Assembly (NCBI GenBank): GCA_964514595.1
Contig: CAZEQZ010000001.1
Coordinates: 331,847-395,846 of the forward strand
Reading direction: 5' to 3'
DNA length: 64,000 nucleotides
From: an uncultured Candidatus Saccharibacteria bacterium
GTDB lineage: Bacteria > Patescibacteriota > Dojkabacteria > SC72
The notes beneath the pieces are model-generated. The model had not been told where the DNA came from, did no database searches, and saw only the letters and a list, made by a program, of their open reading frames with translations. A program made the translations under genes and the position numbers. Numbering within the stretch: position 1 is the stretch's first letter; each line of letters opens with the position of its first letter. Below, piece by piece: positions 44,544 to 61,408 of the stretch.

Positions 44544-46331
44544 CTATTTTACAGTAACAGATTTTGCTAGATTCCTAGGTTTATCTATACTATTACCTAA
44601 TTCTAAAGAAAGAAAATATGATATTAATTGAAAAGGTATTACGTTAGATATACTACTCAATGTATTTATTTGAGGTGTAGGTATGAAATCATCAAATATG
44701 TCTAATTTAGAGTATTCAGAGCTCCCTATGCCGATTGTATGAGCTCCCCTGGCCTTTACCTGCTCCATAGCACTAATTATATCCTTATTATCATCTGTAT
44801 GTTCATTAGAAGGTACTATACCTATTACAGGAGTACCCTTCTCTATCAATGCTATAACTCCATGCTTAAGTTCCCCTGCAGAAAAGCCCTCTACATGCTT
44901 ATACGATATTTCCTTAATCTTAAGTGCACCCTCAAGCGCTATAAAGGAGTTTTCTCCTTTTCCTAGAATAAAGAAGTGTTCATATTTTTTAATGTTCTTG
45001 CATATCTGTTGTATATATTTAAATGTAGAGGGCTTAAATATATCTTTAAGAGAGTTAGAAAGCTCCTTTAATTTTCTCTGTGCAGTTCTGTGCTTTCCTA
45101 TGAGTGACATAGCTACTAAATATCCCCATGCAGTTTGAGATGTGAAGACTTTGGTGGAAGCTACACATATTTCAGGTCCTGCGTTGGTGTAGTATTCATA
45201 ATCTGACATTCTAGATATTGTAGTACCGTACATATTAACAATACTCGCTATCTTGCACCCTCTTTTCTTAAATACTTCCAAAGGCTCAATAGTATCTGCT
45301 GTCTCTCCACTTTGTGAAATTGCTAATATTAGATCTTTAGTAGAGAGAATTGGTAGGTAGCTTCTAAATTCGTAACTTTTTATCTCCTGTGCATCTATTC
45401 CTGCAATTGTTCTTAAAAAGTATGCTATCTGTCCTGCAGCATACCCAGCTGTACCTGCACCTAATATATATACCTTCCTAGATTTTTTAATAGCATCTAA
45501 TATTGGTTGGAGCTCCTTAAGAGTATACTGTGTAGCAAATAGAATTGTTTTCTGTTGCTCTACAATCTCTTTTAACATATAGTGGGCATATTTACCCTTA
45601 GATATATCCTCATACTGATACTTTAGTTCCTTTATTTGAGGTGATACTTTCTTGCCTGTTTTAATATTCGTGATATTAAATTTCTTCCCCTCAATCTCCA
45701 CCATTTCATAATCATCAAGTACGACGATCTTTTTAGTATACGGGGAGAAGGAAAGTGAATCAGATGCCAGATATGTTCCATCTTTTCCTATTCCCACAAC
45801 CAAGGGAGAGCCATTTTTAATTGCATATATTTTCCCTGATTGAGAATCTATTAATGCAACTGTATTTCTTCCTTCTAAGGTTTTGAATACATTTATAAAT
45901 GATTGTTTAAGGGTATTTCCTTTCTTAATCTCTCTTTCTATTAATTTAACAATAACTTCAGTATCTGTTTGAGATTTAAATACATATTTCTCCCTCTTTA
46001 ATTCTTTTTTAAGTTGATCAAAATTCTCCACGATACCATTCTGTACCAAAGTGAAGTCCTTGGATGTGGAGATATGGGGATGGGCGTTTGTTTTTGTAAC
46101 GCCACCGTGTGTAGCCCATCTGGTATGTCCTATTCCAATATTACTCTTAGGAAGCTTTGTTAAATTGGTATCCTTTTTAACAAGCCCTATGTTTTTGTAT
46201 TGATATATCTTCTTTCCATTCAATACTGCAACTCCCCAAGAATCATATCCTCTGTATTCCAATCTCTTGAGTCCTTCAAATACTAAATTGTTTGCAACAT
46301 TAGATCCAGTGTAGCCAAAAATACCGCACAT
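44544..46331 (-). CDS. glmS: Glutamine--fructose-6-phosphate aminotransferase (GlcN6P synthase)
   Basis: N-terminal MCGIFGY (Ntn Cys). Glutaminase domain. Two SIS domains. 595 aa. Confidence 0.9.
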   Translation of the reverse strand: MCGIFGYTGSNVANNLVFEGLKRLEYRGYDSWGVAVLNGKKIYQYKNIGLVKKDTNLTKLPKSNIGIGHTRWATHGGVTKTNAHPHISTSKDFTLVQNGIVENFDQLKKELKREKYVFKSQTDTEVIVKLIEREIKKGNTLKQSFINVFKTLEGRNTVALIDSQSGKIYAIKNGSPLVVGIGKDGTYLASDSLSFSPYTKKIVVLDDYEMVEIEGKKFNITNIKTGKKVSPQIKELKYQYEDISKGKYAHYMLKEIVEQQKTILFATQYTLKELQPILDAIKKSRKVYILGAGTAGYAAGQIAYFLRTIAGIDAQEIKSYEFRSYLPILSTKDLILAISQSGETADTIEPLEVFKKRGCKIASIVNMYGTTISRMSDYEYYTNAGPEICVASTKVFTSQTAWGYLVAMSLIGKHRTAQRKLKELSNSLKDIFKPSTFKYIQQICKNIKKYEHFFILGKGENSFIALEGALKIKEISYKHVEGFSAGELKHGVIALIEKGTPVIGIVPSNEHTDDNKDIISAMEQVKARGAHTIGIGSSEYSKLDIFDDFIPTPQINTLSSISNVIPFQLISYFLSLELGNSIDKPRNLAKSVTVK

Positions 46332-46349: not shown

Positions 46350-46490
46350 TATATTCTTAGGGATTGGTGGTTAGAGTTTGTTTATTTGTAACTAACCTTT
46401 AGGCTAACAATATAGCCTAGGAGTGCCCGCTGATGGCTCGATAGCTCCTGCCTCGTAACAATATCCTTGGTATTGCCCAGCCGCTTCTAT
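46350..46490 (-). ncRNA. Candidate glmS ribozyme in the glmS 5' leader
   Basis: Minus-strand leader GUUACGAGGCAGGAGCUAUCGAGCCAUCAGCGGGCACUCCU matches the conserved glmS ribozyme core (GUUGACGAGGAUGGAGGUUAUCGA...CGGCGG...CCUCC in Bacillus). A P1-like hairpin CAAUA/UAUUG lies upstream, the P3-like hairpin UAGGCUA/UAGCCUA and then UAAAGG follow, and there is a terminal hairpin GGUUAG/CUAACC. The region is locally GC-rich in an AT-rich genome. Confidence 0.5.
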
Positions 46491-46554
46491 GTTAAATAAC
46501 CCTTCGTATATATTACAGGATAGATTTTTGAGGTCAAGTGATATATATTAGAAT

Positions 46555-47235: not shown

Positions 47236-47936
47236 TTAGGGAAGATATATTAGCGGACTTCAAAAAAGTTTCATCAAAAGAGAAAGCTCAGATACTTCAA
47301 CGTTTCTTTAAAACAGGTAAAGGAGAGTATGGAGAGGGAGATATATTTATAGGGGTAGTTGTTCCTGAGATTAGAAAATTGTGCAAAAAATATTACAAAG
47401 AGCTATCATTCAACAACTTGGACTATTTTATGCATAGCAAGATACATGAACATAGACTATTTGCGATACTATGTCTGACATATAAATACGAAAAGGCTGA
47501 TGAGTATGAACAGAGGAGAATTTTTGACTACTATCTTAAGAATACAAAATATATTAACAATTGGGATCTGGTAGATCTATCAGCACCTAAGATTGTGGGG
47601 AGATATTTAAAGGATAAGGATAGAGATATTCTATATAAATTAGTAAAAAGTAATAGTTTATGGGAGCAAAGAGTAGCTGTATTGGCAACAGCTTCATTCA
47701 TATACGATCATGACTTTAAAGACATTTTAAGATTCTCTGAAATGCTAATTAATCATAAGCATGATTTAATACATAAGGCTGTAGGATGGATGTTAAGAGA
47801 GGTTGGGAAGAAAGATCTTAATGTATTAAGAAAATTTCTCAACAAATATGCTACTAAAATGCCCAGAACAATGCTGAGATACTCTATAGAGAAGTTTGAT
47901 AAGGAAGAAAGGCTCATGTATTTGAAGAAATCCTAA
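47232..47936 (+). CDS. DNA alkylation repair enzyme, AlkD/AlkC-like HEAT-repeat glycosylase family
   Basis: Pattern NNWDLVDLSAPKIVG...LWEQRVAVLA...HKAVGWMLREVGKKD matches the DNA_alkylation family. Overlaps the upstream gene by 4 nt. Confidence 0.55.
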   Translation: MIREDILADFKKVSSKEKAQILQRFFKTGKGEYGEGDIFIGVVVPEIRKLCKKYYKELSFNNLDYFMHSKIHEHRLFAILCLTYKYEKADEYEQRRIFDYYLKNTKYINNWDLVDLSAPKIVGRYLKDKDRDILYKLVKSNSLWEQRVAVLATASFIYDHDFKDILRFSEMLINHKHDLIHKAVGWMLREVGKKDLNVLRKFLNKYATKMPRTMLRYSIEKFDKEERLMYLKKS

Positions 47937-48451
47937 ACTGTTTTGATTTTCACTAATTGATTTGCAATCAAACCACCAGTTAATACAGTAACTAATTGAA
48001 TTATTCCCATAGAGCTTAGAAATATACTTGGTAATTCTATTAATCTATTTAGAATTAAAGTCATTGTGAAAAGAAAGATAGCCTTTATGGCAGATGCAAG
48101 AATTACACTTATATAATCCTTCTTAATGTGTTTATATATTAAAACATAAAGGATGTTTGCGATACCAATAACTGGAATTAAATATAGGAGAAAATGAGTA
48201 GTAGTGCCAAACAGTAGACCGTATGTATAGGAGGCTATGGAAGGAAAGAATAGTGCAGGAGCTATTTGTTTAAAACTGAATTGGGTTATACCTAAAATCA
48301 AAAGAAAATTAATTAAAGAACCAAGTAGTAGTTGTGGACCTGGGAGGATGAGAGGAGTTATGAAAAGAAGAATGTAGAAGAGTGAAAGGTGTAAATATTT
48401 GTTGAGTAATATGAGATCCAATTTTTGATATATTCTGTATATATATTGCAT
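47933..48451 (-). CDS. Polytopic membrane protein (possible ECF-transporter S-component/BioY-like)
   Basis: 172 aa with about 5-6 TM segments. TPLILPGPQLLLGSLINFLLILG weakly resembles the BioY-type S component. Confidence 0.3.
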   Translation of the reverse strand: MQYIYRIYQKLDLILLNKYLHLSLFYILLFITPLILPGPQLLLGSLINFLLILGITQFSFKQIAPALFFPSIASYTYGLLFGTTTHFLLYLIPVIGIANILYVLIYKHIKKDYISVILASAIKAIFLFTMTLILNRLIELPSIFLSSMGIIQLVTVLTGGLIANQLVKIKTV

Positions 48452-48537: not shown

Positions 48538-49389
48538 ATGGAATTTGATAGAAGTAAGAAATATATCTGTTTGCTTGCACCCTCCTTTGTTTCCGAGTTC
48601 GATTATCCAGATATAGTATATCGACTAAGAGCCCTAGGATTTGACAAGGTTGTAGAGTTAACATTTGGAGCTAAGATGACCAACCTAACCTACTATACTG
48701 TATTAAAGGATAGTATAGACAAGGGGGAAAAGAAGACATGGATAGCATCGCCCTGCCCTACGCTTGTTAACTTCATAAAGGTTAAGTATCCCCATCTGGT
48801 TGAAAATTTGGTTCCTGTACACTCTCCTATGGGAAGTATGAGTTTGATTTGCAAAAAGTTTTATCCTTCTCATACCCAAGTATTTATCGGACCCTGCGTT
48901 ACAAAAAAACTGGAGGCCCAAGAAACAGGAAGTGTCGAGCACGTCCTCACATTTAAAGAGTTGGAGGAGGCATTAAAAGAAAAAAATATACCGGAAAGAA
49001 TAGACGATCCAAAATATTGTGAAAGTTTTGATAAATTCTACAACGATTACACGAAGGTATATCCAATATCTGGAGGCCTATCTAACACCTTAAATTATAA
49101 ACATATCCTTAATGATCATGATATTTTGGTGAAAGAGGGTTTAAATGATTTGGTAAAAATATTTGATAAATTTAAAGATGGAAGATACAAGCATTATAAA
49201 TTCTTAGATATTCTTAATTGCAAGGGGGGATGTATCAATGGGCCTGGAATGATAGGAAATAGGTCTATCAAAGAGAGGACAAAGAGGGTATTGAAATACC
49301 GTGAGTTTGCTTGGAAGTACGAGAAGGATTTAGGTAAAGCTGGTAGTTTAGTTGATGCAAAGGGTGTTGATTTTAAGAGAAAATTCTAA
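48538..49389 (+). CDS. [FeFe]-hydrogenase H-domain-like protein (minimal, with altered L1 motif)
   Basis: APSFVSEF, LRALGFDKVVELTFGAK, L1-like IASPCPTLV (versus TSCCP), SPMGS, L2-like FIGPCVTKKLEAQE (versus MPCxxKxxE) and L3-like LDILNCKGGCINGPG (versus ExMACxxGCxxGGGQP). All four cluster-ligating Cys positions are retained, but the first Cys of TSCCP is Pro. 283 aa. No N-terminal ferredoxin-like domains. Confidence 0.5.
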   Translation: MEFDRSKKYICLLAPSFVSEFDYPDIVYRLRALGFDKVVELTFGAKMTNLTYYTVLKDSIDKGEKKTWIASPCPTLVNFIKVKYPHLVENLVPVHSPMGSMSLICKKFYPSHTQVFIGPCVTKKLEAQETGSVEHVLTFKELEEALKEKNIPERIDDPKYCESFDKFYNDYTKVYPISGGLSNTLNYKHILNDHDILVKEGLNDLVKIFDKFKDGRYKHYKFLDILNCKGGCINGPGMIGNRSIKERTKRVLKYREFAWKYEKDLGKAGSLVDAKGVDFKRKF

Positions 49390-49449
49390 TTTCCTTGACA
49401 AGTGTGTTCTATTTGGATAGATTATCAAATAACCTCTAATTACACGTAC

Positions 49450-51120
49450 ATGTCAAAATACATATTTATCTCGGGAGGCGTAATTTCCGGAATAGGAAAA
49501 GGTGTATCAGCAGCCTCTATAGGTTTCATCTTAAAGTCATACGGTAAGAAAATTACCATGATCAAAGCCGATCCGTATATTAATATTGATGCAGGAACTA
49601 TGAATCCTTTAGAGCATGGAGAGACTTTTGTACTAGAAGATGGGTTTGAAACTGATATGGATATTGGAACGTATGAAAGGTTCACCAATCAATCTTTCTC
49701 TAGGCCTAACTCTATGACGCTTGGTGCTGCTTTGGACAGAGTTATAAAGAAGGAAAGATCATTAGAATATAATGGGAAGTGGGTTAGTCTAGATCATCAT
49801 GTTCCAGAAGCTATAGTGGAGTGGCTAGAGGAGGTAACTAAAAAAGAGAAATCGGATATAACAATAGTAGAAATTGGTGGTACTGTAGGAGAAGTAGGAA
49901 ACAGCTTAATGCTATCGGCAAATAAAGCCCTAAAACTTAGAAATCCCAATGATGTTATACATATTCATGTGACATATCTTCCAGTTCCTCCTCGGTTAGG
50001 TGAAATGAAAACTAAGCCTGCACAGCTTTCAATTCAGCAATTAAATAGGCATGCTATACATCCGGATTTTATAATTGCAAGATCGGAGGTGGGACTAGAT
50101 AAGGAAAGGATTGAGAAAATTAGTAAATACTGTTTTGTACCACCCAATCATGTTATATCAGCTCCAGATGTTGACTGTATATATGATATCCCACTTAATT
50201 TCGAAAGTGCTGACATTGGAAAGGAGATTTTAAAATCATTAAATTTAAGAGCCAAGACTACTCCGCTTTATTCTAAATGGAGAAAGAAAGTTTCTAAAAT
50301 CAAAAATCCCAAAAAGAATCTGGATATCGCCATAGTGGGGAAATATTATAAGAGTGGTGATTTTGATCTTAAGGACTCATATGTTTCTGTTTTGGAAGCA
50401 ATTAATCATGCTTGTTGGGAATTTTCTATTAAACCTAATATTCACTGGATAGTAGCGGATGGATTAGAAAAAGATAAAAAAAGATTAGCAGAATTATCTA
50501 AGATGGATGGTATTATTGTTCCTCAAGGTTGGGGATGTAGAGGATGTGAAGGCAAAATACGAGCAGTGCAGTTAGCTAGAGAAAAGAAAATTCCATATTT
50601 CGGACTATGTTACGGCATGCAGATGGCCACAATAGAATATGCAAGGAATGTATTAGGTATCAAAGATGCTAATTCAGAAGAGGTTGATCCTAAATGTAAG
50701 GACAAAGTAATACATTTAATGGAAGAGCAACAGGAACTAATTAAAAAGAAGGAGTATGGAGGTACTATAAGATTGGGTGCTTGGCCATGCAAGATAGATG
50801 AAAAATCTCTTATATATGAAATGTATGATAAATATGGTAATGGTCTTTACAGGCCGCTTCCAGTAGTTCAGGAAAGACATAGACATAGATATGAATTTAA
50901 TAATGAATATAGAGAGATATTTGAAAAGTCTGATTTCAAATTAGTGGGTAAAAGTCCTGATGATATGTTAATTGAAGCCATAGAACTATCCAAAACTGTG
51001 CATCCATTCTTTATAGGCACGCAGTATCATCCAGAACTTAAAAGTAGATTCTTAGAACCACATCCATTATTTATGGGGTTTGTAAATGCTAGTTTAAAAA
51101 GAAAGGCCTTTATTTCTTAA
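49450..51120 (+). CDS. pyrG: CTP synthase
   Basis: N-terminus MSKYIFISGGVISGIGKG. Synthetase domain. C-terminal class I glutamine amidotransferase with GLCYGMQ. Start placed at the internal Met. Promoter TTGACA-17-TAGATT at 49391-49419. Confidence 0.9.
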   Translation: MSKYIFISGGVISGIGKGVSAASIGFILKSYGKKITMIKADPYINIDAGTMNPLEHGETFVLEDGFETDMDIGTYERFTNQSFSRPNSMTLGAALDRVIKKERSLEYNGKWVSLDHHVPEAIVEWLEEVTKKEKSDITIVEIGGTVGEVGNSLMLSANKALKLRNPNDVIHIHVTYLPVPPRLGEMKTKPAQLSIQQLNRHAIHPDFIIARSEVGLDKERIEKISKYCFVPPNHVISAPDVDCIYDIPLNFESADIGKEILKSLNLRAKTTPLYSKWRKKVSKIKNPKKNLDIAIVGKYYKSGDFDLKDSYVSVLEAINHACWEFSIKPNIHWIVADGLEKDKKRLAELSKMDGIIVPQGWGCRGCEGKIRAVQLAREKKIPYFGLCYGMQMATIEYARNVLGIKDANSEEVDPKCKDKVIHLMEEQQELIKKKEYGGTIRLGAWPCKIDEKSLIYEMYDKYGNGLYRPLPVVQERHRHRYEFNNEYREIFEKSDFKLVGKSPDDMLIEAIELSKTVHPFFIGTQYHPELKSRFLEPHPLFMGFVNASLKRKAFIS

Positions 51121-53218
51121 CATATAGTTTTGTATCCACAACCACGGCCCTGTTCTCTGTTATCATAACAGGGTTAATATCCATTGTTATTATTTCGGGA
51201 TAGGAAACAAGTAATTTCTGTATACTCATTATCAGTTCAATAAGTTTCTCCCTTGCCAGCTTAGGTTTTCCTCTATACCCATCAATTATCATAGATGCTT
51301 TTGTCTTAGAAAGTATAGCGTCTATCTTTTCTAAACGTTCGGGTACTAGAATATGTCTAATATCCTTATAAACCTCTGTATATATTCCTCCTTGTCCAAT
51401 TGCTATTAAATGACCAAATCCAAGTCCACTTTTTTCATAAATATCAGATCCTCCCTCTCTGTTAGCACCAATAAAGAACTCTAATTTACCATCTATCATT
51501 TCTTGTATCAAAATATTGGGAGCTACATTGCCCGTTGTTTTAGTTATACTTTCTTTCAACTCAACAAACTTCTCTTCAAATTCTGTTATTGTTCTTATAT
51601 CCAAGAACAAACCCTTGAAATCAGTTTTATGTGCTAAATCTCTAGATTCTGCCTTAATTGCTACGGGGAATATTGTCGATGCAAAATCAATACCCTGTTC
51701 TAAACTACTAGCAACCATCTGTTGTGGCATATCTATACCAAATTCACTCAACAATTTTATTGAAAGTTTATCAGGAAGTATTTCAATTTTATCTCTAAAA
51801 ACATACTCCGATACCTCTTCTCTACTTTTCACCTTTTTTTGATATTCATCACTGTCTACAATCTTTGTTAATTCTTTGTTTTCTTCAAATTCTGCTAATT
51901 TGGAAATTAAATGCAGTGCTTCTTGGAGGTCATTAAACCATGGACAATTATTTTCTTCTAAAATGCGTATTCCTGATTTAATATCTTTCCCTCCTAGAAA
52001 ACAGGAATAAATTGGTTTAGAAGCCTTTTGAGATATATTAGCTATAGCTTGCGCCGTTCCTTCTATTTCTGTAATTAATTGGGGAGTTAGAATAACTAAT
52101 ATTACATCAATAGACACATCGTCTAGAAGTGTTTGTATGGCGAGCTCATATCTGTCACTCTTAGCATCTCCTAGTATATCAACAGGATTTGAGATGCTTG
52201 ATTCTGGAGGAAGATTCTTTAATAGTTTCTGTTCTGTTTTTTCGCCTATTTGTGCAAGTTTTAGACTTTCTTTCTCTATATGATCTACAGCAATTATTCC
52301 AGGTCCGCCTGCATTAGATACTATTCCAATATTTTTCCCTTTAGGTAGTTTATTTATATCTATTAACTGCATTAGTTTGAATAACTCTTCTGAATTTTCA
52401 GTGAAGATCATATTCCCCTTTTTCACTGCCGCAATAGTTGTATCAAAAGAAGATGCCAAGGATCCTGTATGAGAAGAGATCGCTTCTTTTGCTTTCTCTG
52501 AGATGCCCGGGGCTATTATTAATATTGGTTTTTTAGCTTTCTGACATAGTGTTACGAATTCTTTTCCATCTGAGAATTCTTCCAGATAGAGTGCTATTGC
52601 AGATATGGTATTGTCATTAACATATAGCTCCATTAACTCATTTTCATTTATATCAGCCTTATTTCCTATGGAAACGACCTGGGAGAATCCCAATTTCTTA
52701 TCAGATGCCATATCCAATATAGCAGTACAGAAGGCCCCTGATTGAGAAATAAAAGCGATTTTTCCATCTCCAGGATTTTCTCTCGCGAAAGACAGGTTTA
52801 TCTTAGCCTTATTATTTATGAATCCCAGACAATTAGGTCCTAGCAATCTTATATTCGCACTCTTAAGTTTGTTTGTTATTCTCTCTTCCAATTCCCTACC
52901 CTGTTCCCCTACCTCTTTAAATCCTGCAGAGATAACTACAACACTTTTAACCTGTTTTGTAACACATTGATCTATAATGTCCTCTACAAATTGATACGGT
53001 ATGGCAATACATACTGTCTCCACGTTTTCCTCTATCTTCAAAATATCTGGGTACGCTTTTCTTCCCTGTAGTTCTTCATATTTGGGATTTACTGGGTAAA
53101 TTTTCCCATTATATCCACCCTCTATTAAGTTCCTTAACAAGACAGACCCTATCTTATCAGGATCTTGAGAAGCGCCTACTATAGCTATTGATTTTGGAGA
53201 AAGAATTGATGCTTCCAT
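51110..53218 (-). CDS. Acetyl-CoA synthetase (ADP-forming), fused alpha-beta subunits (NDP-forming acyl-CoA synthetase)
   Basis: N-terminal CoA-binding domain (IAIVGASQDPDKIGSVLLRNL). Succinyl-CoA-synthetase-like ligase domain. C-terminal ATP-grasp. 702 aa. Confidence 0.7.
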   Translation of the reverse strand: MEASILSPKSIAIVGASQDPDKIGSVLLRNLIEGGYNGKIYPVNPKYEELQGRKAYPDILKIEENVETVCIAIPYQFVEDIIDQCVTKQVKSVVVISAGFKEVGEQGRELEERITNKLKSANIRLLGPNCLGFINNKAKINLSFARENPGDGKIAFISQSGAFCTAILDMASDKKLGFSQVVSIGNKADINENELMELYVNDNTISAIALYLEEFSDGKEFVTLCQKAKKPILIIAPGISEKAKEAISSHTGSLASSFDTTIAAVKKGNMIFTENSEELFKLMQLIDINKLPKGKNIGIVSNAGGPGIIAVDHIEKESLKLAQIGEKTEQKLLKNLPPESSISNPVDILGDAKSDRYELAIQTLLDDVSIDVILVILTPQLITEIEGTAQAIANISQKASKPIYSCFLGGKDIKSGIRILEENNCPWFNDLQEALHLISKLAEFEENKELTKIVDSDEYQKKVKSREEVSEYVFRDKIEILPDKLSIKLLSEFGIDMPQQMVASSLEQGIDFASTIFPVAIKAESRDLAHKTDFKGLFLDIRTITEFEEKFVELKESITKTTGNVAPNILIQEMIDGKLEFFIGANREGGSDIYEKSGLGFGHLIAIGQGGIYTEVYKDIRHILVPERLEKIDAILSKTKASMIIDGYRGKPKLAREKLIELIMSIQKLLVSYPEIITMDINPVMITENRAVVVDTKLYVKK

Positions 53219-53219
53219 A

Positions 53220-54086
53220 TTATTTTATATGTTCTAATAGTTTTTTAATATCATACTGTTTTACCTCGTCTACCAACTCTGTTAAGGAATCTTTCCTACT
53301 ATCAAGGGATTCATAGAAGGTCTTCATGTCATTATCCTTAAACAAAATTCCTGTGTATACAGGTGTCTGATCTTTCACTAAATCTAATGCACTGTCTAAA
53401 GATTGGTTATTATAGCTCTCTACGGTTTCAATCTTTTTTATATTTTGAGCAGCCCACTGAGGAGTAAAGTCTTTGTTGTATGTGGGACATAATTGCATTA
53501 TTTCTATAACAGAACATCCTTTGTGATTAACGGCTTCTTTTATTATTTCAGTCAATTGTAGTGGATCGCCGGAATATGCTTTTGCAAAAAATGCAGGTTG
53601 GAGAGAAAGTATAAATTGAGTTATATTAATATCCCTTTCTGGCCTTCCTGAAGGCAATCCATACATTGGTTTTTCCCTCTTGGTTGCAAGGGTAGCTTGT
53701 CCTGTTGTGAGTGCAAAATTCTCGTTGTTATGTATTAGTATGGTAATGTCGTAATTGGACCTGATGGCGTGTATTAGGTGATCTATTCCTTCGTGGAAAC
53801 ATCCTCCATCACCAATATCAGCTAGTACTGTAAATTTTCTGTTTGCTAGATGTGCTCCCACAGCGAGAGGTATGGATCTACCGTGTAAGCCTTTGAATCC
53901 ATACAGATTTATTCTATCTACGCCATTTCCATTACAACCTATATCAAATGCCATAAAAACCTCTGAAGGGGAAATGTTAAGTTCAGAGAGGGCTTTCTTG
54001 AGGGCAACTTGAACAGCAAAATTGCCGCATCCTGGACACCAAGTGGGTATATTAATTGAATTGTACTGTTCTATTGGTATACTCAT
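53220..54086 (-). CDS. 2-oxoacid:ferredoxin oxidoreductase, beta (TPP-binding) subunit
   Basis: CPGCGNFAV Cys cluster. GDGG TPP motif (ADIGDGGCFHEG). 288 aa. Confidence 0.7.
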   Translation of the reverse strand: MSIPIEQYNSINIPTWCPGCGNFAVQVALKKALSELNISPSEVFMAFDIGCNGNGVDRINLYGFKGLHGRSIPLAVGAHLANRKFTVLADIGDGGCFHEGIDHLIHAIRSNYDITILIHNNENFALTTGQATLATKREKPMYGLPSGRPERDINITQFILSLQPAFFAKAYSGDPLQLTEIIKEAVNHKGCSVIEIMQLCPTYNKDFTPQWAAQNIKKIETVESYNNQSLDSALDLVKDQTPVYTGILFKDNDMKTFYESLDSRKDSLTELVDEVKQYDIKKLLEHIK

Positions 54087-55789
54087 TGGCTATTTAAAAA
54101 ATCTAATATATCTTCCAAAAAGAATGGTCTTCCATCATATTTAAGTACTTTTTCTTTAAATAGAAAGCCTGTTTCTTGGGAGAGTAGTTTACCCAATTGT
54201 CCCGTTTGATTATTTTCTGCCAATATTAATCGCTTTCCTTGTTTTATAAGATCAGATAGTAGTGCAGTTTTCAATGGATATATGTATTCGTAGTGAAGGT
54301 ATGTTATATCATCTCTTGTACTAATTAGATCTGTCATAACATTTTTTACACTTCCCCATCCCACAAATACTATTTCACTATTTTTACTCCCGTAGAGGGT
54401 GGGTTCAGGGATTTCATTCATCAAAGTTTCCTGTTTCCTTGCTCTTTTATCTGCCATTTGTATGACTTCTTGGGAATCATCTGTGCTTGTACCATCTTCA
54501 GTATGCTCATCACTATTTGAGATATATGGCTTCTTATCTTTAGATGGAATCCATCTAGGAGAAATACCGGAATCTGTAATTTCGTATCTTAAGTCTCCCG
54601 TACTCAGTCCTCTTTCTATTGGTATGTTCTTGGGGAGGGAAGGAAGTGAGAATATAGATTCGGAAATTTGTTTTTCTGTTAAAAGAATAACTGGAAGTTG
54701 ATATTGTTCAGCTATGTTAAATGCCTTCTGTATTAATGTGTATGAGGAGTTTGCATCACTTGCTGATAGTACACATCTGGGAAATTCCCCGTGAGATGGA
54801 GTGACTGCAAGTTGTAGATCGCTGGCTCCAGTCCATGTGGGAACCCCTGTACCAGATCCTGCTCTTTGAGATAGGACTACTACTAATGGGGTCTCCGTCA
54901 TGCCTGCACAGGATATGGTTTCAGTCATTAAATCGAAACCTCCTCCTGATGTGGCAACTAAAGCTCGTGTTCCCATGTGCATGCTTCCCATGGCCATATG
55001 TATCGCAGTAATTTCATTCTCTGCTTGCTTTACTAAAATTCCCGTGTCATTTGCAGTATTGCCAAGGAATTTAAATATGGATGTGGCTGGTGTCATTGGA
55101 TATCCATAGTATGCTCTCACTCCACAAGATATTGCTCCCAAAGATAGGGCATCATTTCCAGAGATATTGATAGATCTTTGCTTAAGAAGTTCTAATTTAG
55201 GAATATTTATTCTTTCACTCAATTCCGGTCTATATGATGGAGATGTGTGGCCTGCTAGTATGACTTTCTTTTCTGCCTCTAAATCTATATTCTTTGATTT
55301 GAAATGTTCTAATATAATTTCTATTAATATCTCTACATCTAGATTTAATATTCTCCATAGGAAACCTAATATAGCAGCGTTGGACATTATTTCAGTTCCA
55401 CCAGCCTTTATTGCAAGTTCAACTGAATCTAAATATATAACAGATATGTTGTTACGCTTGATATGCTCTTCTTGTTCTTGAGAAAAATTTAAATCCTTAG
55501 ATCCATGGATTAAAATACCGTTTTGGGATACTGTATTAAGATAGTGTATTATAGATTCTGTGGAAGAGGTTAGAAGGATATTGCAATTCCTAGACGAGGA
55601 GTTGATAAGTTTGTTAGAAAAATCTATCTGATAGCTTGCCACTCCACCTTTTATTAACGATGGATACTCTCTATAGGAGAATGTTTTATAGCCGTGTTGA
55701 TTTAATGCCTTGGACAGTAGCTTGCCTACAGTATTTATTCCTTGACCAGATTCTCCTGCAAATTTTACGGACAGTCGTGTAAGGGACAT
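54083..55789 (-). CDS. 2-oxoacid:ferredoxin oxidoreductase, alpha subunit with fused N-terminal gamma domain
   Basis: N-terminal gamma-like domain (FAGESGQGINTVGKLL). Alpha-subunit motif YGYPMTPATS. 568 aa. No delta/ferredoxin subunit is adjacent, so this is a two-subunit OFOR/Kor type. Confidence 0.7.
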   Translation of the reverse strand: MSLTRLSVKFAGESGQGINTVGKLLSKALNQHGYKTFSYREYPSLIKGGVASYQIDFSNKLINSSSRNCNILLTSSTESIIHYLNTVSQNGILIHGSKDLNFSQEQEEHIKRNNISVIYLDSVELAIKAGGTEIMSNAAILGFLWRILNLDVEILIEIILEHFKSKNIDLEAEKKVILAGHTSPSYRPELSERINIPKLELLKQRSINISGNDALSLGAISCGVRAYYGYPMTPATSIFKFLGNTANDTGILVKQAENEITAIHMAMGSMHMGTRALVATSGGGFDLMTETISCAGMTETPLVVVLSQRAGSGTGVPTWTGASDLQLAVTPSHGEFPRCVLSASDANSSYTLIQKAFNIAEQYQLPVILLTEKQISESIFSLPSLPKNIPIERGLSTGDLRYEITDSGISPRWIPSKDKKPYISNSDEHTEDGTSTDDSQEVIQMADKRARKQETLMNEIPEPTLYGSKNSEIVFVGWGSVKNVMTDLISTRDDITYLHYEYIYPLKTALLSDLIKQGKRLILAENNQTGQLGKLLSQETGFLFKEKVLKYDGRPFFLEDILDFLNSQ

Positions 55790-55829: not shown

Positions 55830-56840
55830 TTAGATGGAGCCCTCTCCGTTAAATACGGCATAGTCAAAGAGAACATTGTGCCACTTTGCCTCTGGAATTA
55901 GAACTTCTTTCCCTCTATATATACCATAACAGTTTGCGGAAACTCGAAGATTTATCATTCTAAGATTTTGCAAGCAGTTAAGTTCCAAGGGTACTGAGGC
56001 ATACTTAATACCGATTGTTCCTCCTACAGCTTTGATTCTAATTTCATCAAGGGAGTAAATCTCTCCATCTATTACTTTCTGTTCTTTCAAGTTAATTGGC
56101 ACAGAAAAATTTCTATTTTCTATAAAATACGGCTCCCAATCATTATCTAAGAAATTAATATCTTGAGAGTTACATCTTCCAGAGGAATCTGCGAAACAGT
56201 AATTTGTAATATCCTCATATTCATATTTTTTATATTCTTGAGGCTCCTCAAGGCCTGGGATATACTTGGCATATGATTTAAACAGTACAAAACCTGCCTG
56301 TGTACTCCCTCTTACGTCAAATCCTAGTAATACTTGACACAGCACATCTATCTCAAGTCCCTTTATGGGTAAACTCCAGACTTGACCTGGTCTGATTTCA
56401 AAATATGTATTTTCATCTGCCTCCCTGATAGTTAATTCGTATTCATTCAAACCTTCTTGAACAGGACAAATAGAAAGGTTTCGTATACTGTCTAACATTC
56501 CTAATCTGGAAAGTAGTGTTGATATCTCTTGAGTTGTGTTGTTTTCTTTCAACGGTGGTACTGTGCCCTCTATATAATCGAATTCTTCTTTACTCTCCTC
56601 TGTTCTTATTTTATTTATCATAGCCATAACCTCCTTGATAGGATATAGAGTTAGTTTATCTATTATTAAATCTGATATCTCCAAAGCCTCAGCAGAAGCT
56701 CTTTCTTCTAGCGTGAGTGTTTTGTCTTTTTGGGATCTAAAAAATACGGACATAGCTATTATTGAGGATACAACCATAACTACCATGGCTATTGCTAATG
56801 CTTGAGATTCATATGTTTTCTTTATTTTCATATAGACCAT
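55830..56840 (-). CDS. Hypothetical membrane-anchored extracellular protein (last gene of the secreted-protein operon)
   Basis: 336 aa with an N-terminal TM helix (ALAIAMVVMVVSSIIAMSVFF). Its start overlaps the upstream stop by 1 nt. Confidence 0.4.
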   Translation of the reverse strand: MVYMKIKKTYESQALAIAMVVMVVSSIIAMSVFFRSQKDKTLTLEERASAEALEISDLIIDKLTLYPIKEVMAMINKIRTEESKEEFDYIEGTVPPLKENNTTQEISTLLSRLGMLDSIRNLSICPVQEGLNEYELTIREADENTYFEIRPGQVWSLPIKGLEIDVLCQVLLGFDVRGSTQAGFVLFKSYAKYIPGLEEPQEYKKYEYEDITNYCFADSSGRCNSQDINFLDNDWEPYFIENRNFSVPINLKEQKVIDGEIYSLDEIRIKAVGGTIGIKYASVPLELNCLQNLRMINLRVSANCYGIYRGKEVLIPEAKWHNVLFDYAVFNGEGSI

Positions 56841-59632
56841 TAAAATACTTTAAATCCTACCTCTTGTTTGTACATAGGAGCTTCGCTTCCAAAAAAAGTT
56901 TCCGAAATTCTTGCGTACTTTATATCCCAAGAAACAACCAAAGTGGGATGAGAATAATTATACAATCTAAGATTTCGTTTTATAAAAATAGCAGAATCTA
57001 ACTGAGAGCTATTCCCTAAAGAAACTAAACCTCCTTTTATCTCCAAACCATCTCGAACAGCATCATTTTCGTCTGCCACCTCTATCAGTATTTGATTTTC
57101 TGCTATCATAAAACCTTCTATATAATCGTATCCGACCAAATCCCCAAAGCTTTGCCTCCCACCTTCCTTAATAAAAATGTTTTCCTTTGCAACAAATATA
57201 CATCCAACTGTCTTGTCCGCAGTGGATTCAATTATATTTGGATGTAAAATTATGTCCTTCTCAGACATTATTAAGGTATCTCTATCGCAAACAAACCCCT
57301 GTTCTACCTCAATCTGGTCTGTAGCATAGAAGAGGCAGTATCTATTTTCTCCACAGTATGTCGAAGAGGAGGAACTTAAAAGCACCTCAAAAGATTCATT
57401 TATATACATATCTCGTTCAAGTTGTTGGACATTTAATTTTCTTTTTAAATATTCGAACCAGTAGTTCTTCTTGTCATTTGAATCATATATATTTATTGCC
57501 CTGACTGCTCTACTTACTTCTGGGTGTATCAAATTAGTGATAAAATCTCCCCTAGAAGACACTAACTCTGTCCCAGTGTCTAATTCCTCTTTTAATATAT
57601 TTTTAAACACTCCTTCTAATTGTCCAACGTTAGACACATCCTTGGAGCTTGCTCCTAATCTGCCTTTTGAATATACTACTCCGCCTTTAGTCGCTATCCA
57701 AGGTCTTAAGTCTACATTGTGTGCTCTAGTAGCATCATTACAGCCCTGATCGTAGGCTGTAGCATAGATGCTAATTATCCCTCCTTCGTTGTCCCCTATG
57801 TTTATTCTGTTTTCTCCTATACTTACATATGTGGAAAGTCCTATGTTATTAAACCTCCAGCTGTTAGGATCTACGATATGACCAATTTCTTTTGAATCAG
57901 GGATTCCTTCCTCTAATACTATTTCGTTGTTTCTTCCTTCTAGAGATATAGATTTGTTTAATAAGAAATCTCCATCTCTGTATGCGTTTATAACAACATC
58001 CGTTACCAAAGATTCGGTTCCATTTATATTCCAATTAAGAAATAGTTCTCTTGGTCCTTGCGGATCTTGGCTTAAATCTATAATATTTGGAACTGAGAGA
58101 TCAATTCCCCAATCAAAATATTTCTTCATATGACTTTGATCTACTCGGCCATCCTCCAGGATCATATGTGTATCTAAAACTACACTTTTGAAATTGTATA
58201 AACCCCCTATATTGGATGAAAAATTGGCGACAAATTCTAAGTCAAATTCGAAGGATATCGTGTCTATAAGTTCCTCTATTTTAGTATATGTGATTCTTGC
58301 TATTGGATCATTTCTGTAATTTTTCAAAACATCATCTGTTATTAAACCCCACGTATTCCCATCTTCATTAATACCATATATCTCTGGTTCGTTATTCCAG
58401 GAATTATTTCTTTGAAGAATCATGATTCCTATCTCATCTACGCTTGTAGCTGTATATGTACTTGTTATCTTAGGAAGAGTTGGAGTATCATTGGATTTAC
58501 TAAACCACACGATTACTCCCTTAATCTCATTAACAGAATTTTTATCGGCTCCCATAACCCTTACCTTTAATGGGTTGTTAACTTCCAAACCGGTATAATC
58601 CTCTGTGTAGCATCCTTTAAATGAAGTTGAATCTTCTCCTCCTAGATTAGGTAAAAATTTTTTCTTCAAACACTCCTGGTCGTCTCCACATACTGTTTCA
58701 TCATCAATAATAGAAGGGTCGGAATTCTCGGGGTCTATTATATCCGGGTTGTTATTTACTCTGTAGTATGTTTCAAGTACAGGAGAATACAATTTATTAT
58801 CATCACATCTATTAACTGTGTAGTATAGTCCTCCGATCTTCCCTTCGGAACCTTGTTTTAATGTCTCCAAAATACTTTGTTCTGAAGGAGAAAAATTTTG
58901 AATATTGTCCGTTGATTCACTACAAAAATCTTCCTGATATGGATCTATACAGCTATTCCATTGAATCCATTCATCATTCACTCCATAATTGTTTGCCCTG
59001 AATATATACCCTAATTCTCTAGATGAATCCGGTTTAGTTCTAGAAGGGAGGAAAAGTTTTACATTATTTTCTATAGAGGGGTATTTAACTATTGTTGGGG
59101 AGTTTGAATTTATAGAGAGAGTGTATGACTCTTCGTCTATTATCATATTTAGAGATTCTGGGATAGATTGTGCTACATTATCCTCTATTTTGTAGCATGT
59201 ACTACGTGAGGTACAAGTATTTCCACAATCATTTTTGTATGTACAGCTAATTGGTTGAGTATCGCTACTACACAAATTATTAGGGTTAGTGGTTGAATAT
59301 CCATCGGGGCAAGAAGGAAATGTGCACGAGCCATTACAGGAGTTATCACATGGGCAACCAGTGAACACACATTCCAATTTTGCACATTTATAACTAGGAT
59401 AAACAAGCCTAGATCCACAACATGAATCTCCGCATGGATTATAACAATGAGTCCAAGGGCTAGCGCATTGATGTCCAGTCCCACCCCAGACGTAGCATGT
59501 TGTTTGTGTACATTTTAAAGAGTAACAACTCGGGCATTGTGCGTACACCTTTTGTACGTAGAAGAAAGTCAACAATACACTAAGAAGAAGAATCATTTTT
59601 ATAGATTTTATTTCTTTCCTTCTATTTCTCAT
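56840..59632 (-). CDS. Large secreted protein with N-terminal Cys-rich module (about 30 Cys in 150 aa)
   Basis: 930 aa. Signal peptide MILLLSVLLTFFYVQKVYA. Segment QCPSCYSLKCTQTTCYVWGGTGHQCASPWTHCYNPCGDSCCGS... The rest is Asn/Ser/Asp-rich. No known domain recognised. Confidence 0.55.
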   Translation of the reverse strand: MRNRRKEIKSIKMILLLSVLLTFFYVQKVYAQCPSCYSLKCTQTTCYVWGGTGHQCASPWTHCYNPCGDSCCGSRLVYPSYKCAKLECVFTGCPCDNSCNGSCTFPSCPDGYSTTNPNNLCSSDTQPISCTYKNDCGNTCTSRSTCYKIEDNVAQSIPESLNMIIDEESYTLSINSNSPTIVKYPSIENNVKLFLPSRTKPDSSRELGYIFRANNYGVNDEWIQWNSCIDPYQEDFCSESTDNIQNFSPSEQSILETLKQGSEGKIGGLYYTVNRCDDNKLYSPVLETYYRVNNNPDIIDPENSDPSIIDDETVCGDDQECLKKKFLPNLGGEDSTSFKGCYTEDYTGLEVNNPLKVRVMGADKNSVNEIKGVIVWFSKSNDTPTLPKITSTYTATSVDEIGIMILQRNNSWNNEPEIYGINEDGNTWGLITDDVLKNYRNDPIARITYTKIEELIDTISFEFDLEFVANFSSNIGGLYNFKSVVLDTHMILEDGRVDQSHMKKYFDWGIDLSVPNIIDLSQDPQGPRELFLNWNINGTESLVTDVVINAYRDGDFLLNKSISLEGRNNEIVLEEGIPDSKEIGHIVDPNSWRFNNIGLSTYVSIGENRINIGDNEGGIISIYATAYDQGCNDATRAHNVDLRPWIATKGGVVYSKGRLGASSKDVSNVGQLEGVFKNILKEELDTGTELVSSRGDFITNLIHPEVSRAVRAINIYDSNDKKNYWFEYLKRKLNVQQLERDMYINESFEVLLSSSSSTYCGENRYCLFYATDQIEVEQGFVCDRDTLIMSEKDIILHPNIIESTADKTVGCIFVAKENIFIKEGGRQSFGDLVGYDYIEGFMIAENQILIEVADENDAVRDGLEIKGGLVSLGNSSQLDSAIFIKRNLRLYNYSHPTLVVSWDIKYARISETFFGSEAPMYKQEVGFKVF

Positions 59633-61196
59633 CTGTCAGGTAAGGTTCATACTCTATAATAGTTTTTAAAAAATAAGCATTATCCTTAATATTATATTTG
59701 TCATCGTACCACAAACCTTTTTTATTTTCAGAACTATAAAAATTTTGATAGTAGGCTCTTAGCAGAAGAGATCTGACTATAGTAGTATTTTCGTTACTCA
59801 AACAAAAATACCAATTATTAAGATTATTTTCGGTTAATCTTAATATGTTTTCATCTATTCTGCTTTCAGAGAAGATGGTTTTATATGCTGATATTTGATC
59901 CATGTACTCATTACCCAGTATCTTTTTTTCTTCATTTTGGACCAATCTGAGGAAAGAATCTATCTGACATACATCTTTTAAAGCAAAATTGTCTTTTTCC
60001 ACCATGGTACTAGTAATCGCAATCAACTGTTTTTCAAACTCCATGTCTATTAGAGAACCTCCTGCAAGTTTTGTAGAATAATAAGAATCCAATAAAGAGG
60101 ATGACAAATTTGAGAATGAAAGGAAATCATATTCGAAAAATTGATACTCACCAGACGTAAACCTACTGGGTGTCAAAGATTGTAAGTAGCTTAACACATA
60201 ATTATCACCATTTAAACCGTTTGCTTTTCCTTCGAAAAGTTCTGTAGTACCATATTTTAGTTCTTCTGAAGAACAGTATTGTGCTTGTAAATACTCATCT
60301 TTATACTCCAAGTTCTCAGATATATCATAAATCATTACACAACTTAAACTATTATTAAAGTGATAAATATTCTCATTTAAAACCATAGTGAGCCCTTCGC
60401 TGATTTCAGCAACTTGACAAATGTCTGGATCCAAACATTCTGTTTGTGTGTTTTCATTATCTTTTCCATAATTAATTACATCTTCATCCTGCAATATACT
60501 TAAAAGATTCTCCTTATTAATTTCGTTTGCGGAGTTTTCCTTTACTAAGAATGACAGAGCCCACGGCGCATATAGTTGTTTATTATCTCTTCCGTTAGAA
60601 AAATAAATACTTTCTCCATCATTAAAAACTTCGGTTATAGACACTTTAGGAGATTTTTGAAACAATAAATCTTCTGATTTAGAATTCTCTATAGGGGTAG
60701 ACAAAATAGCTTCAGCAATACTATTTTTTATAAGCTCGATATCATCCTGGGAAAAATAGAGAGTGTCTATCCCTATTTTTATCTTGTTATTATCAGAGAA
60801 AAACTTGGTTAAATCAGAAATATCCTTAACAGAGGTCAATTCTAATGTTATAGCTTCATAATTTTTAAGATTTTTTATCTTATCTTTGTCAAGATGGTTG
60901 TAGGGGATCTCCAAATTCGGCAGATAAATGTTGCTTTGATCTTTGTAGTCCCATAAATTAATACCCAAAGAAACTGAATCACTAGTGTCATCTTTTATCG
61001 AATAAATCAAACCCCTCATGAGATATTTTTTCTCATAGCAGCTTTTTGAAATTATTTTGTCTTCTAAAAAAGAGTATTTTAGAGGTATTTGAATACATGA
61101 ATAAAACTTGACAGCAAAAAATGACAGAAGCAAAATTGGGAAAACAAGAAGAAACACAAATGCTTTTTTTATGAAGGTTTTTCTTTCTATGGGCAT
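59622..61196 (-). CDS. Hypothetical N-terminally anchored extracellular protein
   Basis: Start at MPIERKTF, chosen because the promoter-like TGTAATATAAT lies 4 nt upstream. TM helix FVFLLVFPILLLSFFAV. About 525 aa. Overlaps the next gene by 11 nt. Confidence 0.45.
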   Translation of the reverse strand: MPIERKTFIKKAFVFLLVFPILLLSFFAVKFYSCIQIPLKYSFLEDKIISKSCYEKKYLMRGLIYSIKDDTSDSVSLGINLWDYKDQSNIYLPNLEIPYNHLDKDKIKNLKNYEAITLELTSVKDISDLTKFFSDNNKIKIGIDTLYFSQDDIELIKNSIAEAILSTPIENSKSEDLLFQKSPKVSITEVFNDGESIYFSNGRDNKQLYAPWALSFLVKENSANEINKENLLSILQDEDVINYGKDNENTQTECLDPDICQVAEISEGLTMVLNENIYHFNNSLSCVMIYDISENLEYKDEYLQAQYCSSEELKYGTTELFEGKANGLNGDNYVLSYLQSLTPSRFTSGEYQFFEYDFLSFSNLSSSLLDSYYSTKLAGGSLIDMEFEKQLIAITSTMVEKDNFALKDVCQIDSFLRLVQNEEKKILGNEYMDQISAYKTIFSESRIDENILRLTENNLNNWYFCLSNENTTIVRSLLLRAYYQNFYSSENKKGLWYDDKYNIKDNAYFLKTIIEYEPYLTDEK

Positions 61197-61408
61197 GTTT
61201 ATTATATTACATTTGTTTCTAACCAAAAACAACAACCCCATAGTATTTGCCCCCTTGTTATTATTATGATATAATTTTCTATATTTGATCACTGCTCTTT
61301 CACAAATTACAAGGTTTGATTTCGCGTTTCCATCTATTTTCTGTGTGGAGTACAAAGTATATTTTTGTATTTTTTGTTCTCTACACAGGGATTAAGAAAG
61401 GATATGTC

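Follow-up and report, generated by a model that had tools for sequence, protein, structure and literature searches.

The smallest known class of [FeFe] hydrogenases, the "ultraminimal" group E, was defined from DPANN archaea only (Greening et al., 2024, Cell, PMC11216029). Its members average 286 amino acids (aa), consist of the catalytic H-domain alone, and have proton-transfer residues unlike those of group A; they were placed as the sister of sensory group C, and genes for 2-oxoacid:ferredoxin oxidoreductase (OFOR) are often adjacent (PMC11216029). The maturases HydEFG are absent from most archaeal hydrogenase genomes, one closed genome included (PMC11216029). The group E enzyme Fm, from "Ca. 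Forterrea multitransposorum", binds one [4Fe-4S] cluster, takes up synthetic [2Fe]adt, and displays H-cluster bands in Fourier-transform infrared (FTIR) spectra; it evolves H2, with a bias toward proton reduction, although its closed genome lacks HydEFG (PMC11216029). Here we describe hydA, a gene for a 283-aa H-domain protein in a 64,000-nucleotide stretch of contig CAZEQZ010000001.1 (hereafter the window, meaning the whole stretch analyzed). The host is a Dojkabacteria (WS6) bacterium of the Patescibacteria, or candidate phyla radiation (CPR), and the hydA family is the bacterial counterpart of group E, a class known since 2024, rather than a new kind of enzyme. In the literature searched, we found no description of such hydrogenases in Dojkabacteria, WS6, or other CPR bacteria.

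Domain identity and phylogenetic placement of hydA

The hydA open reading frame (ORF) starts with ATG, and its product contains seven cysteines in total. Pfam family Fe_hyd_lg_C (PF02906) matches the product at 147.3 bits (cut-off 22.1; E = 7.6e-43), with residues 8–236 spanning positions 2–245 of the 245-position profile, that is, its full length; the Pfam scan found no second domain. A phmmer search of Protein Data Bank (PDB) sequences returned the hydrogenase CpI and the HydA subunit of bifurcating HydABC (E = 1e-17 to 1e-18). The AlphaFold2 (AF2) model, built on 47 homologs, has a predicted local distance difference test score (pLDDT) of 85 and a predicted template-modeling score (pTM) of 0.83, and the top 50 Foldseek matches to it in the PDB are all [FeFe] hydrogenases (TM-score 0.70–0.76 over the query; E = 1e-15 to 1e-12). 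The best NCBIfam model is TIGR04105 (group B1), at 138.9 bits against a cut-off of 450, and the group A model TIGR02512 reaches 87.9 bits against 405.95. Because the best scores fall below these cut-offs, hydA is an H-domain outside all curated NCBIfam subfamilies.

Alignment to CpI fixes the register of the three signature motifs. It is gapless from hydA residue 27 past L1 and sets A70-S71-P72-C73-P74 onto CpI T297-S298-C299-C300-P301. The H-cluster ligands C300, C355, C499, and C503 of CpI, one of which bridges to the diiron site, correspond to hydA C73, C120, C228, and C232, four cysteines that are invariant across the minimal family. Within L2, K123 and E126 take the places of CpI K358 and E361, and these two residues, together with P119 and C120, are likewise invariant among minimal enzymes. 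An earlier note on this DNA, made from the sequence alone, had claimed H-domain homology along the whole protein, the absence of accessory F-cluster domains, exact L2 and L3 strings, retention of the L1 cluster cysteine, proline in place of the proton-relay cysteine (ASPCP for TSCCP), and a shortened L2–L3 spacing; each of these descriptions is borne out by the results given here and below.

The family is large and crosses the boundary between domains. It comprises more than 1100 clusters at 90% identity, with lengths of 279–290 aa, and a scan of GTDB (one genome per species, queried with a 10-sequence alignment) found hydA relatives in 221 species genomes, of which 80 were analyzed. The names of the sequence clusters carried no useful taxonomic signal. 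The protein in its exact form is found on contigs of up to 760 kb. Among these 80, 67 are 57–78% identical to hydA and come from metagenome-assembled genomes (MAGs) of Dojkabacteria/WS6 or unclassified Patescibacteria from digesters, rumen, and groundwater. The other 13, at 41–45% identity, belong almost entirely to Pacearchaeota, Woesearchaeota, or Nanoarchaeota. A further relative (P0123; 46% identity) is encoded on an archaeal contig beside genes for RNA polymerase subunit N and ribosomal proteins. These DPANN members (41–46% identity overall) share with hydA a C-terminal tail of the form G..KG[IL]DF.R.F, a Tyr at the position of CpI E279, and an Asp at that of E495.

The window itself is bacterial, with a glmS ribozyme ahead of glmS and genes for MurB, three Mur ligases, Ddl, and alanine racemase. 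The ribozyme (Rfam RF00234, 50.8 bits; 46359–46496, minus strand) lies upstream of glmS (44544–46331) and serves as a bacterial marker for a CPR genome. Many third party annotation (TPA) MAGs titled "uncultured Candidatus Saccharibacteria bacterium" (L009–L012, L015, L016, L018, and others) carry a Dojkabacteria-type locus with the full synteny of glmS, hydA, pyrG, ADP-forming acyl-CoA synthetase (ACD), and OFOR; the submitted Saccharibacteria labels on these MAGs look wrong.

Phylogenetic placement, which the earlier note had suggested, was carried out by neighbor-joining (NJ) on Kimura-corrected distances over 270 columns and 103 sequences, comprising the Dojkabacteria and archaeal loci plus representatives, and puts hydA in an H-domain-only clade beside sensory enzymes of the group C/D type. 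The Dojkabacteria hydA sequences are monophyletic (97 of 100 and 59 of 60 bootstrap replicates), and their sister group is made up purely of minimal enzymes in 59 of 60. In 51 of 60 replicates, all the minimal enzymes group together in a single clade that admits no more than one outsider, a 352-aa protein with Fer4 and H-domains. The exact set "Dojkabacteria plus archaea" was recovered in 1 of 100 bootstraps; membership of this set is unstable, and sister-group tests were used instead. Because the clades flanking the minimal one have sensory architectures, in which Fer4, H-domain, and FeS (PF04060) segments are combined with PAS, histidine-kinase, or methyl-accepting chemotaxis protein (MCP) domains, our reading matches the published position of group E as sister to group C. 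In one predicted protein of 4122 aa (P0122), a group-A-like H-domain of 444 residues (GLMPCTVKKTEAQR, period 444) is present in six identical copies, alongside a seventh that has diverged; the protein is probably an assembly artifact of a public run.

Group E as published and hydA agree in several respects. Both are H-domain-only proteins of almost the same length (about 286 versus 283 aa), keep the ligands of a single [4Fe-4S] cluster and of the diiron subcluster, have condensed loops and non-canonical proton-transfer residues, occur with OFOR neighbors in a fermentative context, and fall among minimal enzymes beside the sensory groups. They differ in host, which is archaeal by definition for group E and bacterial here. 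Two further differences separate the archaeal minimal loci from those of Dojkabacteria: the position of CpI C299 is mostly V, A, or T in the former and invariantly Pro in the latter, and a gene for a 172-aa membrane protein, frequent beside hydA in Dojkabacteria, occurs in one archaeal locus only.

Active-site pocket and proton-path residues

The residues that contact the diiron subsite are kept in hydA: A14-P15-S16 (CpI 230–232), S96-P97 (CpI 323–324), K123 (K358), and E126 (E361). All are invariant or nearly so in 24 H-domain-only proteins that are 34–74% identical to hydA. The roles of CpI P231-S232, S323-P324, K358, and E361 in the diiron pocket are ones that we take to be established structural knowledge, and the invariance of the pocket at only about 40% overall identity argues for selection on diiron-subcluster binding. 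With group A, represented by CpI, CrHydA1, and a 363-aa "minimal" archaeal group A1 enzyme, hydA has in common the fold (TM-score 0.72–0.76), the four cluster cysteines, and the Lys358/Glu361 and Ser-Pro residues of this pocket.

The proton pathway of group A, by contrast, is replaced throughout. In the ungapped part of the CpI alignment, the relay cysteine C299 becomes P72, so that TSCCP reads ASPCP, and E279, E282, R286, and S319 become Y52, V55, S59, and V92; the active-site methionines M353 and M497 are replaced by G118 and L226. The hydA protein is also shorter, by about 36 residues between L2 and L3 (108 residues from the L2 to the L3 cysteine, versus 144 in CpI) and by 174 residues overall relative to CrHydA1 (457 aa). 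The earlier note was right about the change from Cys to Pro but, in confining the substitution to the relay cysteine, understated its extent.

Nor is the pathway of group D preserved. Mapping of TamHydS onto hydA by offset from the A137/S191/L291 equivalences in PMC11803613, which is approximate, sets the relay residue E252 at L181 and leaves just D224 (at the position of TamHydS E289 and CpI E495, with Asp replacing Glu) and S178 (S249 position) resembling the pathway E252-E289-S249-D265. The sensory enzymes of groups C (TmHydS) and D (TamHydS) are the nearest multidomain relatives of hydA. Like hydA, they have a non-Cys residue at C299 (Ala in both characterized enzymes), Leu for M497, a small residue for M353, a group A proton pathway that is largely gone, and an L2–L3 spacing of about 105. 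Unlike hydA, they carry N-terminal 2x[4Fe-4S] domains, a C-terminal four-cysteine FeS motif, and PAS, kinase, or MCP output domains. Against this background, the minimal clade has traits of its own, namely Tyr at the E279 position, Leu at that of group D E252, Asp where multidomain relatives have Glu (CpI E495/TamHydS E289), and, in most members, a C terminus ending in G..KG[IL]DF.R.F.

The published record and our own counts agree that a missing relay cysteine is ordinary outside group A. In groups C and D, C299 is mostly Ala and the other group A pathway residues are also replaced (PMC10407848, PMC11803613), whereas the C299A substitution removes most of the activity of group A enzymes (PMC11803613). 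We counted residues at this position in 50%-identity cluster representatives from an exhaustive HMMER scan: the 92 multidomain proteins have A (32), P (26), S (16), C (10), or T (7), and the 33 minimal proteins have A (9), P (8), or else N, V, T, or S. Proline is thus the second most common residue among non-group-A relatives. The motif reads xSPCP in 118 of the 120 closest homologs, the proline being invariant in sampled Dojkabacteria and present in two of the sampled archaeal members (L084 and L087). Spacings of 100–108 between the L2 and L3 cysteines are found throughout the non-group-A representatives.

Two explanations of the L1 and spacing features could accordingly be set aside. A sequencing or alignment artifact at L1 is ruled out by the gapless CpI alignment and by the prevalence of xSPCP among homologs. 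That the proline or the short spacing is unique to this protein is ruled out by how common both are among non-group-A relatives, and the weight that the earlier note had placed on them as oddities falls away, both being general outside group A (Pro in 26 of 92 multidomain and 8 of 33 minimal proteins).

Gene neighborhood and predicted role of hydA

The genes around hydA point to fermentation (Table 1). The pyrG gene adjoins it, and ACD and OFOR lie nearby where the earlier note had placed them, in agreement with the domain matches. Across 81 clustered loci, ACD is found within a few kilobases of hydA in 48, OFOR beta in 45 (four archaeal loci and L078 among them), and OFOR alpha in 38; pyrG, or a CMP/dCMP-type deaminase gene plus pyrG, sometimes stands between hydA and the ACD/OFOR genes. 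The OFOR of the window is of the two-subunit type, without a ferredoxin-like delta domain. Linkage to OFOR extends to the loci at 41–45% identity, where OFOR alpha/beta adjoins hydA in 5 of 13 (L078 and four archaeal loci), three of these being co-directional; in L076 and L085, OFOR beta is directly upstream on the same strand and ends where hydA starts. The record title of L078 reads "Candidatus Paceibacterota bacterium," but the hydA and ferredoxin encoded there are similar to those of Pacearchaeota locus L075. These two loci are the only ones with 61-aa single-cluster ferredoxins (CIGCGAC...CP), encoded 4–7 kb from hydA (L075, 14255–14440, minus strand; L078, 2711–2896, minus strand).

Table 1. 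Positions of hydA, its signature motifs, and associated genes in the 64,000-nucleotide window
Feature	Coordinates	Strand	Evidence or remarks
hydA, 283-aa H-domain-only ("ultraminimal," group E-like) [FeFe] hydrogenase	48538..49389	+	ORF, PF02906, PDB matches, AF2/Foldseek, homologs
L1 motif A70-S71-P72-C73-P74	48745..48759	+	Ungapped CpI alignment; xSPCP in homologs
L2 motif GPCVTKKLEAQE, residues 118–129	48889..48924	+	CpI alignment; family conservation
L3 motif NCKGGCINGPG, residues 227–237	49216..49248	+	CpI alignment; family conservation
172-aa all-helical membrane protein, no known family	47933..48451	-	Divergent from and upstream of hydA; candidate partner
ADP-forming acyl-CoA synthetase (ACD), ATP-yielding step	51110..53218	-	CoA_binding, Succ_CoA_lig, and ATP-grasp_5 domains
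OFOR beta (thiamine pyrophosphate and single [4Fe-4S] subunit)	53220..54086	-	TPP_enzyme_C and PFO_beta_C
OFOR alpha (gamma-alpha fusion)	54083..55789	-	POR and POR_N; no delta/ferredoxin domain

Our preferred reading, to which we assign a probability of roughly 0.68, is that the hydA product is a Dojkabacteria [FeFe] hydrogenase, monomeric and reduced to the catalytic domain, which belongs to the same clade as DPANN group E and serves as an H2-evolving electron sink of fermentation. The fermentative part of this reading is supported by the conserved synteny with two-subunit OFOR and ACD, and a ferredoxin-linked fermentative role is also presumed for group A. We infer H-cluster incorporation, a direction of catalysis, an electron donor, and a proton path along the following lines. 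OFOR would oxidize pyruvate or another 2-oxoacid to acyl-CoA, and ACD would convert the acyl-CoA to the acid and ATP. Low-potential electrons would pass through a ferredoxin encoded elsewhere or, less likely, directly from OFOR to the [4Fe-4S] part of the H-cluster, exposed at the protein surface, and leave as H2. Fermentation would thus run through a module of three enzymes (OFOR, ACD, HydA), with the hydrogenase as its electron sink. Because the residues of group A (C299, E279, S319, E282, R286) and group D (E252) are replaced in hydA, protons would reach the bridgehead amine by a different path, probably water-mediated, in a solvent-exposed scaffold with trimmed loops, for which Y52 and D224, both conserved in the clade, are candidate relays.

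Several observations weigh against this reading. The tree is an NJ tree on corrected p-distances, not a maximum-likelihood one, and the exact sister group of Dojkabacteria is unstable, containing archaea in 33 of 60 replicates. The archaeal minimal branch is probably the published group E, an equation made on the basis of host lineage, length, architecture, and tree position. No residue of either characterized proton pathway is intact, and proline is unable to relay protons. No ORF resembling a ferredoxin turned up in the window or in the flanks of any Dojkabacteria locus. Finally, there is no HydE, HydG, or HydF among the large ORFs of the window, as the earlier note had remarked, or within ±10 kb of hydA in 80 related loci, where all CxxxCxxC ORFs of at least 250 aa were run against NCBIfam. 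The window and these flanks also hold no gene for an accessory subunit.

The radical-SAM ORFs in these flanks were considered as HydE or HydG and rejected; they are HemW, generic radical SAM proteins, and one protein of the rSAM/SPASM family TIGR04084. This last (L083, 10819–11952, minus strand; 276 bits) is convergent with and adjoins hydA in an archaeal MAG, a single occurrence that is neither HydE nor HydG.

The absence of maturase genes from the window and the 80 related flanks raises the possibility that the diiron subcluster is never made, and that hydA is in vivo a [4Fe-4S] protein without an H-cluster. It might then act as a low-potential electron carrier or acceptor for OFOR, substituting for ferredoxin, or in another role unrelated to H2, as do eukaryotic Nar1 and NARF. 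The loss of every known proton-relay residue would be in keeping with this, as would the finding that no Dojkabacteria locus has a ferredoxin gene close to OFOR, and tight linkage to OFOR suits an electron carrier as well as a hydrogenase. An empty pocket, however, would make it hard to explain why the residues that contact only the diiron subcluster (the equivalents of K358, S323-P324, P231-S232, and E361) are invariant in bacteria and archaea at about 40% identity. The archaeal group E enzyme, moreover, binds [2Fe]adt and turns over H2 despite a closed genome without HydEFG. Nar1 and NARF, which belong to the eukaryotic cytosolic iron-sulfur protein assembly (CIA) machinery, have an N-terminal ferredoxin-like Cys motif that binds a second cluster, whereas hydA begins 13 residues ahead of its APS motif, has no such N-terminal Cys cluster, and resides in a bacterium. 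We regard a protein without an H-cluster as unlikely.

Slightly less credible to us is that the enzyme works mainly in uptake, oxidizing H2 from hosts or neighbors in digesters and aquifers and supplying the reduced ferredoxin with which OFOR would make 2-oxoacids reductively. In its favor, the OFOR reaction can in principle run in both directions, H2 oxidation is the preferred direction of group C TmHydS (the closest characterized multidomain relative), and the titles of the sequence records (digesters, rumen, groundwater) place Dojkabacteria in H2-rich anaerobic consortia. Yet the characterized group E enzyme is biased toward proton reduction, the conserved gene downstream of OFOR is that of ACD, which marks the ATP-yielding, catabolic direction, and neither CO2 fixation nor respiration is represented in the window. 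An H2 sensor or regulator acting by itself, a group C/D-like H-domain stripped of its output domains and signaling through a partner protein, seems very improbable: the tree neighbors are PAS-, kinase-, and MCP-fused hydrogenases, and hydA shares with group D TamHydS a non-Cys L1, Leu at M497, and a small residue at M353 (PMC11803613), but hydA has no signaling, F-cluster, or C-terminal FeS domain, neighbor clustering of the 81 loci found no conserved adjoining regulator, the conserved neighbors being catabolic, and the group E relative shows true bidirectional catalysis.

The earlier note had left the choice between a very reduced or novel hydrogenase and a non-catalytic, sensory, or Nar1-like protein. 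Its "very reduced hydrogenase" survives, given a clade shared with DPANN minimal enzymes that match the active group E; "novel" does not, group E having been known since 2024, and the sensory and Nar1-like options are disfavored by the lack of sensory modules and of the Nar1 N-terminal motif.

The most frequent neighbor of hydA is the gene for the 172-aa membrane protein (54 of 81 clustered loci), and a profile HMM of its family finds matches in 57 of 87 loci. The protein has no match in Pfam, NCBIfam, or PDB profiles. Its AF2 model is well defined (pLDDT 93), and family members have invariant polar residues within the helices (Q40, N99, K123, Q152, and T155). Among the top PDB matches to the model, the best folds and the only ones with a TM-score of 0.39–0.56 are six chains of energy-coupling factor (ECF) S-components, but these matches are weak and not significant (Foldseek E = 0.6–4). 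S-components such as RibU and PanT resemble it in size (about 170–190 aa), in forming an all-helical membrane bundle, and in having conserved polar residues in the helices; they differ in that the family has no Pfam, NCBIfam, or PDB-profile match to them and the annotated ORFs of the window include no EcfA or EcfT genes. An uncharacterized protein of 4–6 helices, "hyd6TM," is shown beside archaeal group A enzymes in figure legends only (PMC11216029). In a WS6 genome, one homolog of the 172-aa protein bears the label "Putative Fe-only hydrogenase," apparently carried over from the annotation of the adjoining gene.

In several loci, this gene lies directly upstream of hydA on the same strand: L027, the deep Dojkabacteria branches L068–L071, L091, and archaeal L079, where it overlaps the hydA start by 8 nt. 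L079 is truly archaeal, with ribosomal proteins S19e and L31e, an ATP-dependent DNA ligase, and TrmB regulators. We speculate that the membrane-protein gene and hydA make up a two-gene unit that has been transferred between CPR bacteria and a DPANN archaeon, and that the membrane protein either imports a ready-made diiron precursor, scavenged from hosts or neighbors, or docks the hydrogenase at the membrane. This proposal is highly doubtful; if true, the import option would explain an active H-cluster in organisms without HydEFG. An obligate linkage between the two genes was rejected: hydA is missing from the 4 kb around three of four distant homologs of the membrane protein, and the membrane gene is missing from several full-length Dojkabacteria loci.

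On the other side of hydA, an ORF of about 145–146 aa found 3' of the gene in 47 loci was considered as a subunit and rejected; it is a CMP/dCMP-type deaminase, belonging, like pyrG, to nucleotide metabolism. This zinc deaminase of about 145 aa (HAE...PCxxC) is encoded between hydA and pyrG, at an offset of about +859 (L012, L014, L020–L033, and others). It is missing from the window and its closest relatives, in which pyrG follows hydA directly. The 60 bp that separate the stop codon of hydA from the start codon of pyrG (ATG, 49450) contain a sigma-70-like TTGACA-17-TAGATT (49395–49423, plus strand; 10 of 12 matches), and because of this match we suggest that pyrG may have its own promoter and hydA may be monocistronic in the window. 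Promoter and terminator scans of the AT-rich window gave nothing informative beyond it.

Three other regions of the window deserve mention. Downstream of OFOR (55830–61355, minus strand) are three consecutive large ORFs (336, 930, and 577 aa) with no Pfam match, the first two of which are conserved in position in many Dojkabacteria loci. A 393-aa protein (23231–24412, plus strand) matches the F420-0:gamma-glutamyl ligase family PF01996 at 176 bits, a family unexpected in a CPR genome; the 218-position profile is spread over residues 12–385, which implies a large insertion. A 1446-aa protein (14312–18652, minus strand) with fn3 and carboxypeptidase-regulatory-like domains is encoded in the sole GC-rich stretch (0.41 at 16–18 kb versus about 0.33), and Cys-rich giant proteins like it are also present in L018 and L020.

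Minimal hydrogenases in CPR bacteria and DPANN archaea

The finding leaves knowledge of the enzyme class itself unchanged; what it alters is the known distribution. The smallest known hydrogenase class, previously defined from DPANN archaea, now takes in an entire class of CPR bacteria: minimal hydA is carried by at least 67 sampled GTDB species of the Dojkabacteria type. The family also supplies many natural variants of a predicted H2 catalyst of about 32 kDa, including one in which an invariant proline replaces the group A cysteine, and these should be useful for work on proton routes. At the same time, H-cluster assembly in the absence of HydE, HydF, and HydG becomes a sharper question, for which the 172-aa gene offers a concrete candidate partner. 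Both great radiations of ultra-small, host-dependent prokaryotes share a stripped-down, probably H2-evolving module of OFOR, ACD, and HydA, and its presence in CPR bacteria and DPANN archaea alike is most simply explained by inter-domain transfer.

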